A program made the position numbers. A stretch of 64,000 nt of DNA from Syntrophorhabdaceae bacterium. GTDB taxonomy: Bacteria > Desulfobacterota > Syntrophorhabdia > Syntrophorhabdales > Syntrophorhabdaceae. The DNA is taken from the NCBI GenBank assembly GCA_963666485.2, contig CAXXUO010000001.1, positions 608,001 to 672,000 on the forward strand, given 5' to 3'. This document shows positions 42,001-54,000 of the stretch, one piece after another; position 1 is the first letter of the stretch, and every line of letters begins with the position of its first letter.

Positions 42001-45000
42001 CGACCCTTTGCTGAAGGAACTGGAACTCTTCACGGGCGGCGTCGTATTCCGCATTTTCGGAAAGGTCCCCGTGTTCCCGCGCCTCTTCGATAGCTTTCAA
42101 GATCTGCGGGCGTTTGACGCTCAGCATATTCTCGTGCTCTTTCTTTAATGCTTCGTAGCCTTCCCTGGTGATCGGTACTTTCATTCATGCTCCGGTTTTG
42201 TAAATTGGAGTAAAAGACTACCTAAAGCAGGATAAATTATCAACAGATTTGTGTCAGTATCCGGCTTGCCCCCCAAATCCTTACCACCGCCGGAAATATC
42301 GATAAAATCAGGAAAAAATCCTTGACAAGATCCTTGACTAACAAGTATAACTGACTAAAGTGGTAAAAGGTGTAAAAAGGTGGGAGATTGTTCATAGGGA
42401 GATACGAATATTCCATCGATGATAAAAGCAGGGTGAGCGTCCCGGCGAGGTTCAGGGAAGCCCTTTCCTCAAGCGCCGACTCCCGGCTCATCCTCACTAT
42501 TCTCGACGGCTGCGTTGTGGCGTATCCCTACCAGGAATGGCTTTATATCCAGGATAAGATCTCGGCCTCCGGGTCGATGAGCAAAGAGCAGAGGGCTTTT
42601 CTGCGCTATTTCTTTTCCGGTGCCACCGAGTGCACTTTTGACAAGCTGGGAAGGATCCTTATTCCCCAGGCGCTCAAGACCGACGCGCATATCCAGAAAA
42701 ATGTCGTCATAGTCGGCGTGGGAAAGAAAATAGAGGTCTGGGCAAAAGAAAAATGGGAAGAACTGGTTCGGACAGCCACTGCCGATCCCGATCAGATAGC
42801 CACTATCGTATCGGAACTCGGTCTTTGAGTGACGCCGGACATATCCCGGTTCTTTTCCAGGAAGTACTTGAAAACCTGATCAGCAACACAAGCGGCACAT
42901 TCGTCGACGCAACTCTCGGGGGTGCGGGACACGCCCTCGGATTGCTGAGCAGGAACAGTAAATTACACCTAATAGGTATTGATAGAGATCAGGAAGCCTT
43001 AGAGCGGGCGCGGGACGTACTCAGAGCATATAGCGACCGGGTAACTTTACTGAGAGGCAACTTCGGGGACATGAAGGGTTTGCTCCACAGTGCAGGGGTG
43101 AAATCTATTGACGGTGCCCTCTTTGATCTTGGTATTTCCAGCTATCAATTGGAAAGCGGCAGGGGATTCAGCTTTAACGACGACGAGGAACTCGATATGA
43201 GGATGGACCGGGGACAGGACCTCACTGCATATCACATCGTTAATTCATATCGCCAGGAAGAGATCGCCCGGATCCTCTACGAATACGGGGAAGAGTGGCA
43301 ATCGCGCAAAATAGCGAAGGCCATCTTCGATGCCCGGAAAAAAGACCGTATACGGACAGGCAGGCAGCTCGCCGGGATCATCGCATCGGTAAAGAAACGG
43401 ACCGGGAAGACCCATCCTGCCACGAAATCTTTCCAGGCTTTAAGGATAGCCGTCAACGACGAACTGAAAAGCGTGGTGAACGGGCTCGATGCGGCCCTCG
43501 AGCTTCTGTCGCCCGGGTCCAGAATAGGCGTCATAACGTTTCATTCCCTTGAAGACCGGATCGTCAAGGAGCGTTTTCGCAACGATGACGCCCTGGCAGT
43601 CGTGACCCGCAAGCCCTTGAGGCCGGGCCGCGACGAGGTCCGTTCCAACCCGCGGTCGCGCAGCGCCAAACTGCGCATCGCAGAGAAAAAATCAGTGGGG
43701 GGTGCATCATGATGTACAGATCGAGAAAGATATATATAGACACATCGGGCGACAAGCTGTTCGACGGCGTCCGGCCCATTCTCTTTCTGGGAGTCATGAT
43801 AGCTTTTGTCATCATTGTAAGCTGCCTGCTCGTCAATGCCCACAGCCGGGCACGGCAGGACCTTATCGAGACGCTGACGCTCGAGCGCCAGATGAGGGAG
43901 ACGCACCAGAAACTGGCCTCCGACATGGCAGGCGTTACGCAGTCGCGGCTCCTCGCCCTGAAGGCGAAAGAAAGGCTGGGTTTGACAAAACCAAAGGATG
44001 AAGAGGTTCTCGTCTTGAAATGAACAAACAGGCGATCAGGAAAGCCTTCATTGTATGCACACTCATAGGGCTCATGTATGCAGGGATTGCGTTCAATGTT
44101 CAGGACCGGTTCTCCATGAAGAGGACGTCGGGGAAGCTCGCCGCAAAGGCACCCCGGAGCTTGAGCGTCGCCGCGCCGCAGCCGAAACCGGACCCGGTCC
44201 CCCAGAAAAAGGCCCTGGTCGCAGATAGCAGCACCGGTTTAGAGCCCGCATTCCTCATCGCCGTCCCCATCATCGCTTTTGCCATACGCGAAAATCTCCT
44301 CGAAAAAGACGGCATGGTCGTCGTTCAGAAGAATGACGAGGATTCGTCTTCGGTCTACCTGAAGAAACCCATGGACATATTGAAAGACAGGGACAAGGAA
44401 GGCCTCAAGGCCTTATCGCGCATCATCGGCAAAAAGAATATCGAGGTCTTTCTCACAAAACAGGGTGTGAAGGTCCCCGATAAATCCCTGTCTGTTGATA
44501 CTATCACCGGAATCGGTTACAGTATTGACCGGAAATTGCTTGTTAGTATGTACGATCAGTATGTCGGTGAAGGCTTCGCTTCCCTCATGCCTTATGCCTC
44601 TGGCGGTTTTGAAGTCTCAAGAAAAAATAACGGGTACCAGATCAATGCGGTCCGGAATGAAAAAACACCGGAGAACGCGGGGGCAAGTTCCGCCTTTTCC
44701 ATGCCGGACCTCACGGGATTGTCCATGAAAGCGGCCCTCGACAGGATATCGCCGAAGGCCGAGGTCAAGATCCACGGTTCGGGCATCGTTGTCGACCAGT
44801 TCCCCAAACCAAAGGAAAGAGTTGAAAAAGAGACCCGGTGCGTTCTGTATGGGAGGTCATACCAAAAGTGAAACTTGGCAGCATAATAAAAGGGGTAGAC
44901 ACGATAAGCATCCGCGGCAATACCTCCCTTGAAATAACAGGTATTACGAAAGATTCGCGCGATGTCACGCAGGGTTCCCTCTTCTTCGTGACGCGCTCGA

Positions 45001-51000: not shown

Positions 51001-54000
51001 TGCCGGGTTTAAACTCCACCTTATCGAGGCCCATCAATTCCTGGGACGCTCGGTGGTACACAAGGCAGTAACGCTCCTTCGGATCATCAAAGGCGTCTTC
51101 ATGTGCCTTAAGATATTGAAACAGGAAAGACCGGACGCCATACTCGGCATGGGCGGGTTTACCTCGGTGCCCGTCATCATTGCGGGGAGAATGCGCGGGA
51201 TCCCCTGCTTCATCCATGAACAGAATGTCGAGCCCGGGCTTGCAAACAAATTATTGTCGCGCATAACCCGGACGGTTTTTGTGAGCTTCGACGCCACGGC
51301 CGCGAAACTGCCGCACGGAAGCGCCGTGCATACCGGCAACCCGCTCCGCCAGAAATTGAAGAAGATCGAGGGGATCAAGGATCCGGAGTCGTTCGGCATC
51401 TTTGTCTTCGGGGGCTCGCGGGGGGCAAAAAGCATCAACGATGCCGTCGTGTCGCTCCTGCCCCACCTCGCGGAGCATCACAATGTCGTCGTCTATCACC
51501 AGACCGGGCCGGATGATCTCGACCGGATACGTGACGCGTATTCCAAGGTCCGCGTCCCGCATGAGGTCTTCGCCTTCACGAACGAGATGGAAAAATATTA
51601 CGCGCTTTCCGATGTGGTGATAGCACGCGCAGGCGCAACGACGATCTTCGAACTCGCCTTTTTCCGGAAGGCGGCGATACTGATACCGTATCCGTACTCG
51701 GCCGGCAATCACCAGTGGCAGAACGCGGCATACGTGGAAGAAAAGGGCGGATGCCATCTTGTCAACAATGACGAAGCAACGGGTGAATTGCTGTTCGGCT
51801 TGATCCGGCAGCTCATGAAAGATAGAGAGCTCATCAAGAAAATGGGCGAGAACCTGGGAAAGATATTCGTGGACAATGCCGCATTACGCATCATCGGAGG
51901 AATAGAACATGGTCTTTCATAAGATCGAACGCGTCCACTTCGTGGGCATAGGCGGCATTGGGATGAGCGGCATCGCCGAGGTCCTCATCAACCTCGGCTT
52001 CAAGGTGACAGGGTCCGATGTCCGCCAGACGGATATAACGGAGAGGCTCGCATCCCTCGGCGCGGTCATCTTCCAGGGCCACCGGGAGGAGAACATCGTC
52101 GATTCCGACGTCGTCGTCGTTTCGTCAGCGGTGAGACCCGACAATCCCGAGGTAAAAAAGGCACGTGAGCTCTTCATTCCCGTCATCCAGCGCGCCGAGA
52201 TGCTCGCCGAGCTCATGCGTATGAAATATTCGATCGCTGTCGCGGGGGCGCACGGAAAGACGACGACAACGTCCCTCGTTTCCTCGATCCTGGGCCAGGC
52301 CGGCCTTGACCCGACCTGCGTCATCGGCGGGCGCTTGAACAGCCTCGGCAGCAACGCGAAGCTCGGGGATAGCAAGTACCTCGTCGCCGAGGCCGACGAA
52401 AGCGACGGCACGTTCCTGCTTCTCTTCCCCACGATCGCTGTTGCGACGAACATCGACCTCGAGCACCTCGATTTTTACAAAGACATAAACGAGATCAAGG
52501 CGGCGTTCCTCGCATTCCTGAACAAGGTGCCTTTCTACGGGGTGAACATCCTTTGCATCGACAACCCGAACATCCAGGGCCTCATACCCTCGCTCAAGCG
52601 GCGCTACATGACCTACGGCTTGTCGAAGCAGGCCGATCTCAGGGCGGACAATATCTCGTACAAGGGGTTCGTAACAAAGTTCAGGGTGATATACAAAGGG
52701 TACGACCTGGGTGAGATCGAGCTTAACCTCGCCGGGGCGCACAATGTCGTGAACGCCCTTGCCGCCTGCGGCGTGGCGATCGAACTCGACATACCGTTTT
52801 ACACCATACAGGAGGCCCTCAAGAATTTCTCCGGCATCCATCGCAGGCTGGAGATAAAGTACGACGGCGATATCAAGCTCATAGACGATTACGGGCACCA
52901 CCCGACGGAGATCAAAGCGACCTTGAGCGCCATGCGGAAGATGTGGAAGGGCCGGATCATCGTCGCATTCCAGCCCCACCGCTACACGCGGACCCAGGGG
53001 CTCATGGATGAATTCGCCACGTCCTTCAACGAAGCCGACGTCCTCATCATTACCGAGATATACGCGGCATCGGAAGACCCTATCAAAGGGATCAGCGGAT
53101 CGGCGCTCGCCGAAAAGTTACGCGCGAGCGGGCATAAGAATGTGATCTTCGCCCCGACGCGGGATGATGTGATCGACAGGGTACTGGAAAACGCTAAACC
53201 GGGGGACGTCGTAATAACCCTCGGCGCCGGGGACCTGTACAGGATAGACGAACGTTTAAGAAGCGCATGGACTGGAAAGAAATAAAAGGAGCGGTATTGA
53301 AAGACGTGCCCATGAAACGGTACACATCGATGCGGGTCGGCGGACCGGCGAGGATGCTCCTCTACCCGGCCGACAGGGCGGACCTGCAGGCAATGGTGCG
53401 CCGTCTTCGCGATTCGGGCATCCCGTACCGGTTCCTCGGCAACGGGACGAATATCATCGTCAGCGATGACGGCATCGGCGACGCGCTTATACGGCTAAGC
53501 AGGATGGCGAGGCTTCATTTCACCAAAACACCGGATGGGGCCATCGCGGAGGTCGGCGGCGGCTTTTCGCTCAAGCGCTTCATCCGTGAATGTGCGCGGC
53601 GCGGCCTCGGAGGGCTCGAGAAACTGTACTGGATACCCGGGAGCGTCGGCGGCGGCATCAGGATGAACGCGGGAAGCTTCGGCCAATCAATATCGGACAC
53701 ACTGACAGGCATCGCGGTCCTTGACGGCCGGGGCCAGGTGATCGAAAAAGAGACTGCGCCGGGTGATTTCGGATACCGCGCATCCCTCGTAAAGCAGTCC
53801 GAATGCGTCATCAGCGGGCGATTTCAGCTGAAAAATGCCGACAGGGCCCAACTCGAAAGGGACATGGACTACGTCTACCGGGAAAGGAAGTTGAGACACC
53901 CCATGGACTACCCTTCGGCGGGGTCCGTATTCAAGGGTGTCAATGGACAATCGGCATGGTGGTTCGTCGAAGAGGCGGGCCTGCGCGGGTACCGGATAGG

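Follow-up and report, generated by a model that had tools for sequence, protein, structure and literature searches.

Shrunken FtsW- and FtsI-like proteins without canonical catalytic motifs occupy the dcw cluster of Syntrophorhabdales

Introduction

The FtsW–FtsI pair is described in PMC10693644 as having been considered universally essential for the septum until an exception was found in Clostridioides difficile. Division in this species is reported to proceed independently of FtsW and FtsI, by means of PBP1, a class A penicillin-binding protein (PBP), and a non-catalytic role is reported for its class B enzyme PBP3 (PMC10693644, PMC12539705). Inactivated class B PBPs are likewise reported to be still needed as partners, both for Bacillus subtilis PBP2B with PBP3 and for C. 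difficile SpoVD with PBP3 (PMC12516126). In Escherichia coli FtsW, residues W138, Q147, P196, G199, R243, D297 and Y379-G381 are reported to be required for septal synthesis, whereas FtsW reaches its site without them, and recruitment of FtsI and FtsN is reported to persist in several of the mutants (PMC8765783); scaffolding and catalysis therefore appear to be separable. In Desulfobacterota, a missing ftsW, and this alone, has been remarked in passing (PMC7873302, PMC8871954), and FtsI is regarded as the active septal enzyme in PMC7873302; a published report of a pseudo-FtsW was not found.

Results

Organization of the dcw cluster

The window, the whole stretch of 64,000 nucleotides that was analysed, comes from a Syntrophorhabdaceae genome (here G000) and contains, with no gap, the series mraZ-mraW-ftsL-X-murE-murF-mraY-murD-Y-murG-murC-murB-ddl-ftsQ-ftsA-ftsZ, where X stands for the ftsI slot and Y for the ftsW slot. 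The features are as follows:

42388..42828, + strand: mraZ, first dcw gene (PF02381, E 3.5e-31)
42837..43712, + strand: mraW/rsmH (PF01795, E 3e-101); start set from homologue alignment, longest ORF from 42753
43709..44023, + strand: ftsL, 104 aa, one transmembrane segment (TM), assigned by position and anatomy
44020..44871, + strand: pseudo-FtsI, 283 aa; TM 9-27, disordered linker replacing the pedestal, shrunken transpeptidase fold of ~150 aa without SxxK, SxN or KTG, single PASTA domain (227-272)
44880..46319, + strand: murE, Mur ligase domains
46309..47667, + strand: murF, Mur ligase domains
47667..48743, + strand: mraY (PF00953, E 5e-33)
48745..50070, + strand: murD (PF21799, PF08245)
50067..50858, + strand: pseudo-FtsW, 263 aa, GTG start; SEDS fold of 10 TM in which the periplasmic loops ECL2 and ECL4 are shortened, canonical catalytic motifs absent, N120 and D223 invariant
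50858..51922, + strand: murG (PF03033, PF04101)
51909..55064, + strand: murC, murB and ddl
55061..55762, + strand: ftsQ, POTRA and FtsQ_C above cut-off
55759..57012, + strand: ftsA (PF14450, E 1e-53)
57023..58189, + strand: ftsZ (PF00091, PF12327)

The start of the ftsI-slot gene overlaps the ftsL stop, and the ftsW-slot gene overlaps the end of murD on one side and the beginning of murG on the other. The ftsL product matches the NCBIfam FtsL family only at E 0.0018, under the cut-off; in 40/40 loci the gene has mraW on one side and the ftsI slot on the other, and its dN/dS is 0.04-0.12. FtsB was detected in 73 of 77 order genomes.

SEDS and class B PBP genes in the order

As stated in the preliminary description, RodA and PBP2, encoded in an intact mreBCD-mrdA-rodA operon, are the sole SEDS protein and class B PBP of G000; each is the single match in this genome to PF01098 and PF03717, respectively, and relaxed profile searches (SEDS profile from 46 sequences, FtsI profile from 41) covering all 50,014 six-frame segments yielded no further SEDS or FtsI copy. 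Of the five matches to PF00905 above the cut-off, one is PBP2, three are class A PBPs and the last is a class D beta-lactamase-like protein of 302 aa. Across the order, PF01098 has a single match in 83/96 genomes and more than one in 13/96, and PF03717 a single match in 87/96 and none in 2. The extra SEDS genes, previously regarded as weak, are not so: they match at E 1e-39 to 1e-51 and, in four of the five genomes examined, possess a catalytic-Asp motif and are followed by a gene for a PbpA-type class B PBP overlooked by PF03717. This accessory SEDS–PbpA pair was rejected as the septal substitute, G000 and most of the order being without it.

The order-wide retention of the two slot proteins, also proposed earlier, holds. 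Homologues of the ftsI-slot protein occur in 95/96 order genomes and those of the ftsW-slot protein in 94/96, and the genome without either match, G007, is also without a murG match. Among 40 order loci selected for diversity, ftsL-X-murE was found in 40/40 and murD-Y-murG in 39/40, the remaining locus being mraY-Y-murG. The ftsW-slot protein measures 260-264 aa in 66/68 cases. In four genome pairs, the ftsW-slot gene had a dN/dS of 0.09-0.13 and the ftsI-slot gene one of 0.18-0.23, as against 0.06-0.12 for murD, murE and murG; both slot genes are under purifying selection.

The protein in the ftsI slot

Pfam recognizes only PASTA in the ftsI-slot protein. Profile alignment with 41 FtsI proteins (probability 97.4%, E 1.1e-11) identifies it, by sequence, as a true FtsI homologue, adding to the affiliation by fold on which the earlier assignment as a pseudo-FtsI was based. 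The alignment pairs EPAFLIA with EPGSTFK and DRDKEG with YSSNIG, and KTG is deleted. As described before for the 283-aa PASTA protein, both SxxK and the pedestal are missing: none of 64 family members has SxxK at the aligned site, where the Ser column is mostly L or F and the Lys column S or A, versus 35/35 FtsI proteins of other families in the phylum that have it, and PBP_dimer is matched in Pfam by 0/64. The SxN position is occupied by R/K-D-E/K, and that of the pedestal by a variable linker of 25-102 aa (pLDDT < 50). The model aligns with PBP domains over ~150 residues (Z 11.7); the transpeptidase domain is about half the normal size, and the N-terminal TM anchor is kept. The protein is almost certainly devoid of transpeptidase activity, and the label 'dead' is firm for FtsI. 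PDB sequence searches with the alignments of both slot families returned nothing meaningful; in the ESM Atlas, the ftsI slot leads to an unnamed PASTA cluster and the ftsW slot only to sub-0.9 matches.

The protein in the ftsW slot

The case for a pseudo-FtsW in the ftsW slot is built on the fold, the place of the gene, the topology with 10 TM and a profile match that is weak and confined to the N-terminal half. Its model (pLDDT 86.9) superimposes on Pseudomonas aeruginosa FtsW (8bh1) with Z 19.3 and rmsd 3.5 over 254 of 263 residues, followed by RodA (Z 17.1 and 15.9), the best non-SEDS fold being WaaL (Z 12.6), and the K/R-rich even loops are consistent with an N-in, C-in arrangement of 10 TM. 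The absence of the SEDS sequence family, noted in the preliminary description for the 263-aa protein, extends to the family as a whole, with 0/61 members matching PF01098 at E <= 0.1; the window protein matches no Pfam or NCBIfam family, TIGR02614 included. Profile-profile comparison with FtsW aligned N-terminal residues 25-112 only (probability 35%, E 4e-4), and neither global nor C-terminal hhalign produced an alignment; the place of the lost catalytic Asp was read by eye because the C-terminal half gives no significant profile alignment.

The protein is ~100 aa shorter than FtsW; the ECL2 hairpin and ECL4 are gone, the latter amounting to 14 residues in the window protein and 13-15 across the family versus 63. 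The motifs RW, QPxE, HTDF and SYGG are each found in 0/61 members versus 8-10 of 10 FtsW proteins, and the catalytic-Asp motif is present in 36/36 FtsW proteins of other families in the phylum. Nevertheless, Asn120 and Asp223 are invariant (61/61), position 181 is acidic in 42/61, and the best-conserved segments are ECL5 (0.65), TM9 (0.64) and TM5 (0.61). Conserved cytoplasmic residues include K51, Y52 and P53 in loop 2/3 and K99, K105 and E106 in loop 4/5, the latter loop being reported as the proposed FtsA contact of FtsW (10.1101/2022.10.30.514410). Complex prediction with pseudo-FtsI residues 1-40 scored 0.19 (mark 0.32), which weighs neither for nor against a pairing of the two proteins. 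Canonical polymerase activity is very probably absent; however, because Asn120 and Asp223 are invariant and TM9–ECL5 are best conserved, the earlier claim of a catalytically dead pair stands for FtsI and, judged from motifs, is only likely for FtsW.

Loss of ftsW elsewhere in Desulfobacterota

The absence of FtsW had been presented as a trait of the order, overlooking a similar outcome elsewhere in the phylum, where 28/146 genomes outside the order have a single SEDS match and 15 of these 28 a dcw cluster without ftsW. Other lineages of Desulfobacterota, Desulfobulbia included, have deleted ftsW and kept a motif-less FtsI: SxxK is found in 0/43 named-record loci and, in a separate count, in 0/15. 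One shared ftsW loss is rejected by an LG+G4 tree of 30 rows (AU p 0.006) and the losses are apparently independent among lineages; the deep branches of this tree and of a FastTree phylogeny of the 70 rows from which the 30 were taken conflict, for instance in the placement of family f33. These lineages deleted ftsW outright, and division therefore does not in general depend on a scaffold with the SEDS fold, which weighs against such a role in Syntrophorhabdales.

Discussion

Which enzyme builds the septum

Both septal enzymes of Syntrophorhabdales survive only as shrunken copies without the usual active-site residues, and therefore another enzyme would have to build the septum. In the ancestor of the order, FtsW and FtsI may have lost their catalytic parts and stayed as structural members of the divisome; the mutually activating surfaces, the FtsW loop ECL4 and FtsI's pedestal, are both lost, and FtsZ, FtsA, FtsQ, FtsL and FtsB are kept. 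Pseudo-FtsW, with its 10 TM, and the membrane anchor of pseudo-FtsI would still join FtsQLB and FtsA in a complex at the Z ring, the tethered, shrunken transpeptidase fold and PASTA domain would bind the periplasmic wall or partners, and a class A PBP would polymerise and cross-link septal wall, as in C. difficile. That the relics act as a divisome scaffold is probable; a class A PBP as the principal synthase of the septum is slightly favoured; and the two together, as the whole explanation, have about an even chance.

A GT51 enzyme is encoded in 77/77 order genomes, and the class A PBP motifs of G000 are intact. The best candidate synthase would be a compact 650-aa class A PBP (G000:C2:254393-256345), the type represented by the single GT51 enzyme of the order genome G004. 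Full-length matches to it (E <= 1e-110) occur in 21/22 FtsW-less versus 17/33 FtsW-bearing genomes, a figure drawn from only ~2 to 5 lineages that are independent of one another (chance 0.23 to 0.03). The wide occurrence of class A PBPs among Gram-negative bacteria weighs against the candidate, and the compact form fails as a universal substitute, being absent from genus g164 and from one named Electronema genome. G004, G113 and G198 each have one GT51 gene, which encodes a class A PBP, and the monofunctional glycosyltransferase encoded close to the cluster was for this reason discarded as a general substitute.

The relics may instead form a dead scaffold for RodA–PBP2 recruited to the Z ring, one SEDS–class B PBP pair then serving elongation and division. 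No motif of RodA or PBP2 is lost, and both proteins occur throughout the order; the RodA catalytic Asp is also kept in family f33, the closed genome G198 encodes no recognised glycan polymerase other than RodA and a single class A PBP, and in most ftsW-deleting lineages the dead FtsI has the pedestal, the SEDS-contacting domain. Nevertheless, the RodA profile is ordinary, with TIGR02210 above and TIGR02614 below cut-off and the mre operon intact, and knock-down of RodA or PBP2 in C. difficile is reported to affect elongation and not septation (PMC10693644); this explanation seems unlikely.

Rather improbable is a minimal SEDS-fold protein that still deals with lipid II or with the undecaprenyl carrier, whether by binding it, by passing it to a class A PBP or by a new reaction that uses Asp223 and Asn120, FtsI alone being dead. 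The two invariant residues, the conservation peaks in TM9, ECL5 and TM5, a central cavity that would be lined by ECL3 and ECL5 as in FtsW, a dN/dS equal to that of the Mur enzymes and the precedent of WaaL, with other chemistry on the same fold, are consistent with it; however, the motifs required for polymerisation and most of ECL4 are gone, buried polar residues may have a structural role, and the identity between families, 23-37% versus 51-59% for MurD and 70-77% for MraY, is low for an essential enzyme.

A non-division role for descendants or unrelated replacements of FtsW and FtsI, held in the operon by overlaps alone, is quite doubtful: the ftsW-slot search of 1.84 billion proteins gave 46 matches, with no SEDS protein of full length among them, and its best Foldseek E-value is only 0.016, but the fold similarity is higher to FtsW and RodA than to WaaL, and both genes lie, in single copy, in the exact ancestral slots, with FtsQLB retained. 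Finally, an artefact (ftsW and ftsI unassembled in drafts, or decaying pseudogenes) is hardly credible since, although most order assemblies are fragmented and 13 have more than one SEDS match, the slots hold constant-length open frames in contiguous DNA, 1- and 3-contig genomes included, with dN/dS far under 1, and the same search gives at least two SEDS matches in 116/146 phylum genomes outside the order.

Returning to the scaffold, the naturally evolved pseudo-SEDS/pseudo-class B PBP pair could be an essential adaptor linking FtsZ–FtsA–FtsQLB to another wall synthase, possibly passing on lipid II via conserved cavity residues, and Gram-negative Desulfobacterota, among them cultured Desulfobulbus and cable bacteria, could have evolved division free of FtsW–FtsI on two occasions at least and perhaps on five, the FtsI active site being gone wherever FtsW was lost or disabled; for this broader proposal the balance is even.

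Comparison with known systems

These bacteria would be Gram-negative exceptions to the FtsW–FtsI rule, and of a new kind, with the pair retained and its active sites stripped. The relics delimit the non-catalytic purpose of FtsW and FtsI, a question until now addressed by point mutants only, and the strict pairing of a missing or disabled FtsW with a motif-less FtsI in the different lineages makes the replacement enzyme and its control testable in cultured anaerobes; FtsI-specific beta-lactams are predicted not to cause filamentation of these cells.

The Syntrophorhabdales pair shares with canonical FtsW–FtsI–FtsQLB (P. aeruginosa FtsWIQBL, 8bh1) the dcw slots, the 10-TM SEDS fold, the FtsI transpeptidase/PASTA homology and the accompanying FtsQ, FtsL, FtsB, FtsA and FtsZ; it differs in the reduced length of FtsW and in an FtsI without pedestal, SxxK, SxN and KTG. 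With the cases reported in PMC12516126 it shares a class B PBP that would be required for its presence and not its activity, but those are described as otherwise intact enzymes mutated in the laboratory, in the presence of a second class B PBP and of a SEDS partner that is active, whereas in Syntrophorhabdales the loss arose in nature and extends to the SEDS partner, and G000 lacks a second class B PBP that could step in. The likeness to C. difficile, as reported in PMC10693644 and PMC12539705, lies in the lack of a functional vegetative FtsW–FtsI, the one RodA–PBP2 pair and the available class A PBPs, the function of the relics here being deduced from motifs. C. difficile is, however, Gram-positive and is described as using an active dcw pair, SpoVE–SpoVD, in sporulation, as lacking FtsA and as growing without need of FtsQLB; in Syntrophorhabdales the dcw pair is degenerate yet kept, FtsA and FtsQLB are present, and the part played by a class A PBP is putative. 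Desulfobulbaceae and cable bacteria (PMC7873302) and Thermodesulfobacteria (PMC8871954) are of the same phylum, with RodA as sole SEDS protein and an FtsI that likewise lacks SxxK; in these, ftsW is deleted, murD adjoins murG and FtsI usually has the pedestal, whereas in Syntrophorhabdales pseudo-FtsI is without it and the ftsW slot is kept filled.

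The dcw cluster and the remaining wall enzymes

The dcw cluster runs complete and without a gap from mraZ (42388) to ftsZ (58189) in the window, and all of its genes match the expected families, the ftsI and ftsW slots being the only exceptions. The ftsI-slot gene overlaps the ftsL stop, the ftsW-slot gene overlaps the end of murD and the beginning of murG, and both slot genes have the GC content of the operon.

44020-44871: ftsI slot, 283 aa, PASTA as the sole domain match
50067-50858: ftsW slot, 263 aa, no family match
G000:C9:54189-55097 (same genome, minus strand): 302-aa protein, class D beta-lactamase-like by sequence (PF00905, E 8e-37)

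The preliminary description had named RodA and PBP2 of the mre operon as the only SEDS protein and the only class B PBP, and this holds: the single PF01098 and PF03717 matches are rodA and mrdA, which lie in an mreB-mreC-mreD-mrdA-rodA operon and pass the RodA and PBP2 cut-offs, and phylum profiles (46 SEDS, 41 FtsI), run with relaxed filters on all 50,014 six-frame segments, yielded no further SEDS or FtsI copy. Besides PBP2, PF00905 matches over the cut-off come from three class A PBPs and from the class D beta-lactamase-like protein. FtsB and MurJ are present; the sole SPOR match (G000:C3:429705-429902) lies within a 980-aa TPR-repeat frame and is not a typical FtsN. Two wall genes lie outside the operon: a monofunctional peptidoglycan glycosyltransferase (60787-61650, minus strand, TIGR02070 over cut-off), 2.6 kb past ftsZ, and a LysM-YkuD L,D-transpeptidase (37671-38777, plus strand), 3.6 kb ahead of mraZ.

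The two slot proteins

In the ftsI-slot model (pLDDT 79) residues 32-69 are disordered and residues 70-213 form a globular domain, in addition to a TM helix and a PASTA domain. The globular domain resembles those of PBP transpeptidases and class D beta-lactamases at Z 10-11.7 (142-156 residues, no clear best), and PBP2x is the top Foldseek match (E 9e-5). Profile alignment of 64 members with true FtsI gives a probability of 94% with 4 FtsI and 97.4% (E 1.1e-11) with 41, pairing EPAFLIA with EPGSTFK and DRDKEG with YSSNIG and leaving out the KTG strand, and the protein is firmly assigned to FtsI by descent. At the aligned site SxxK occurs in none of the 64 members (Ser in the Ser column in three, Lys three positions later in none), so that the protein cannot be a serine transpeptidase. 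Pfam finds PASTA in 52/64 and neither Transpeptidase nor PBP_dimer in any of the 64, the pedestal being replaced by a linker of 25-102 aa. A stripped-down pseudo-FtsI with PASTA, lacking pedestal and SxxK, had been proposed from the fold, and the profile homology now adds to it.

The ftsW-slot model has ten TM helices (pLDDT 86.9, pTM 0.86), and its best match among 48,161 chains is FtsW 8bh1 (Z 19.3, rmsd 3.5, 254 aligned), followed by RodA (Z 17.1, 15.9) and WaaL (12.6); Foldseek puts the same proteins on top, at E values of only 0.016-0.2. Fold and position thus suggest that this protein is FtsW by descent. The earlier statement that it has no SEDS sequence match stands for Pfam (0/61 members), and the family's 46 matches among 1.84 billion proteins include no full-length SEDS, but a weak profile match to FtsW exists (probability 35%, residues 25-112 only), with the RW hairpin of ECL2 deleted. 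The RW, QPxE, QPD, HTDF-type and SYGG motifs are found in 0/61 members versus 8-10/10 FtsW, and the loop ahead of TM8 (ECL4) has 13-15 aa versus 63; E. coli FtsW mutants at these motif sites are reported to lose septal synthesis and keep localisation (PMC8765783). K184 (R/K in 58/61) appears by eye, unconfirmed by alignment, to occupy the place expected for the catalytic Asp. The reading as a catalytically dead pseudo-FtsW agrees with fold and motifs, whereas the invariant N120 and D223, an acidic position 181 in 42/61, and TM9 and ECL5 as the most conserved segments count against it. Judged by the defining catalytic features in their sequences, neither slot protein belongs to its enzyme family.

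Comparison with close relatives (four pairs) gives dN/dS values of 0.09-0.13 at the ftsW slot and 0.18-0.23 at the ftsI slot, against 0.06-0.12 for murD/murE/murG and 0.04-0.12 for ftsL, values that indicate working rather than decaying genes.

Distribution within Syntrophorhabdales

The slot-gene observation is real and order-wide, as first described: 94 of the 96 order genomes have the ftsW-slot protein and 95 have that of the ftsI slot, and in 40 loci picked across all four families the order ftsL-X-murE (X, ftsI slot) is kept in 40/40 and murD-Y-murG (Y, ftsW slot) in 39/40, with Y split into two pieces in one copy. One genome (G007) has neither protein and no murG either, probably because its cluster was not assembled. 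At another locus (L083, G095:C56; genome 84% complete) no murD lies between mraY and the ftsW-slot gene. Homologue records are labelled Syntrophorhabdus, Syntrophorhabdaceae or Syntrophorhabdales, and one 'Syntrophobacterales'. FtsB is found in 73 of the 77 order genomes at least 90% complete.

One SEDS match is present in 83/96 genomes and one PBP_dimer match in 87/96 (none in two, both incomplete). The additional SEDS matches in the other 13 count against the simple picture; by score and length they mostly look like duplicates or fragments, and four of five examined are SEDS proteins of 460-482 aa that carry the catalytic-Asp motif and have a PbpA-type class B PBP encoded after them (SxxK in view in 2/4). 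A second PBP2-like gene occurs in two genomes (G080, G082). Such extras are sporadic in the order, and the genome of the window has none.

L286-L289 (G056, G055, G053, G044): accessory SEDS-PbpA operon; SEDS with N-terminal extension, TPR gene upstream in two

Loss of FtsW elsewhere in Desulfobacterota

Other families of the phylum mostly carry two SEDS genes, as previously noted: among 146 genomes outside the order, 116 have at least two matches, 28 have one and two have none. Of 40 loci fetched round SEDS matches, 36 are dcw clusters, and as controls the catalytic-Asp motif is present in 36/36 FtsW and SxxK in 35/35 FtsI in view. Among the 23 of 28 single-match genomes checked by murG context, ftsW is kept in eight and murD adjoins murG in 15; with G110 these make 16 ftsW-less clusters from eight families, whose ftsI slot holds a protein of graded size, from 656 down to 320 aa, without SxxK, SxN or KTG in 15/15 in view.

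L141-L157, L161-L206: ftsW-deleted dcw clusters; families f19, f22, f33, f35, f51, f55, f66, f72 and named Desulfobulbus, Desulfogranum, Desulfurivibrio and Ca. Electronema records

In the class that includes genome G187, one SEDS match occurs in 142/151 genomes, none in four and two in five. Named records in the same state include Desulfobulbus elongatus, D. rhabdoformis, D. alkaliphilus, Desulfogranum marinum, Desulfurivibrio sp. and Ca. Electronema; SxxK is found in 0/43 complete ftsI-slot proteins (three cut proteins dropped), and the murD-murG gap is at most 238 bp in 29/29 loci. A single SEDS match is present in each of five named genomes. The remaining loci have SxxK and KTG in 28/28 complete FtsI.

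In family f33 (L145:6201-7172, L146-L148) the ftsI-slot protein (320-333 aa) retains the beginning of the pedestal region but neither PASTA nor a Pfam family match, a trimming opposite to that in Syntrophorhabdales. Where the region is in view, the ftsW-deleted clusters have no ddl, which some FtsW-bearing clusters also lack. Families f19, f66 and f72 (L149, L153-L155, L157) have a murE-murF fusion. The reverse loss is seen in family f8 (L109, L115, L119, L124), with ftsW in the dcw cluster as the sole SEDS and a rodA match in 0/4 genomes. Weaker second SEDS matches lie at G325:C35:14599-15453 (1,172-aa frame), which may be a SEDS-PBP fusion, and G292:C1:2773173-2774243 (532-aa frame).

A tree of five proteins (30 of 70 rows, LG+G4) places Syntrophorhabdales as sister to the FtsW-bearing family f14 (support 99), requires five changes and rejects a single clade of all FtsW-less rows (p-AU 0.006); since composition is uneven and deep branches disagree with a FastTree run, only at least two losses are claimed.

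Septal synthesis

A polymerase is needed for the septum, and of the recognised ones RodA and the GT51 enzymes remain. A GT51 gene is present in 77/77 order genomes, both main class A PBPs of the window's genome have intact motifs, and in G004 the single GT51 gene is the compact class A PBP, which in the window's genome has 650 aa (G000:C2:254393-256345). Full-length matches to this G000 enzyme (E <= 1e-110) occur in 21/22 FtsW-less versus 17/33 FtsW-bearing genomes, a co-occurrence with a chance of 0.23-0.03 given only 2-5 independent lineages; genus g164 lacks the compact form, its class A PBPs having about 1,140 and 715-850 aa. Class A PBP-like frames of giant size (1,110-1,190 aa; GT51 plus a weak transpeptidase match), found in 8/8 genomes searched, are candidate septal synthases in their class.

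G316:C1:3437019, and in G317, G328, G336, G361, G327, G389, G392: giant class A PBP-like frames

In C. difficile, class A PBP1 is reported to make the septum and RodA-PBP2 to elongate (PMC10693644, PMC12539705), and a class A PBP is therefore the likelier maker of the septal wall here. That RodA-PBP2, the only SEDS-bPBP pair left, builds the septum is the less probable reading, this pair being the elongating one in the same precedent. Hand-over to a class A PBP could have started from a complex of the type in which a review places E. coli PBP1b, with FtsWI and FtsQLB (PMC8998562). The relics would act as a divisome scaffold, a role that we infer because they are retained jointly with FtsQLB and FtsA, because ECL4 and the pedestal, which touch in SEDS-bPBP pairs (PMC8765783), are lost together, and because the 4/5 loop, where contact with FtsA has been proposed (10.1101/2022.10.30.514410), has conserved residues.

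Comparison with known systems

Absence of ftsW has been reported for four Desulfobulbaceae genomes, with FtsI treated as active (PMC7873302), and its loss from the cluster is listed for Thermodesulfobacteria (PMC8871954). Taxa given as lacking FtsI are Thermotogales, Petrotogales, Deinococcales, Thermales, Chlamydiota and some Flavobacteria (PMC12516126), and the main text of that source has no word starting with 'Desulfo', 'Thermodesulfo' or 'Syntroph'. Among the papers listed by literature searches (15 of 858 in one of them), with subscription journals mostly outside their coverage, none deals with the division genes of Syntrophorhabdus or with a SEDS protein that is catalytically dead in nature, and so far there seems to be no description of a Gram-negative order that keeps a pseudo-SEDS together with a miniature pseudo-FtsI. 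Division without active FtsWI is already known from C. difficile, and the present case is therefore a variant of a known phenomenon.
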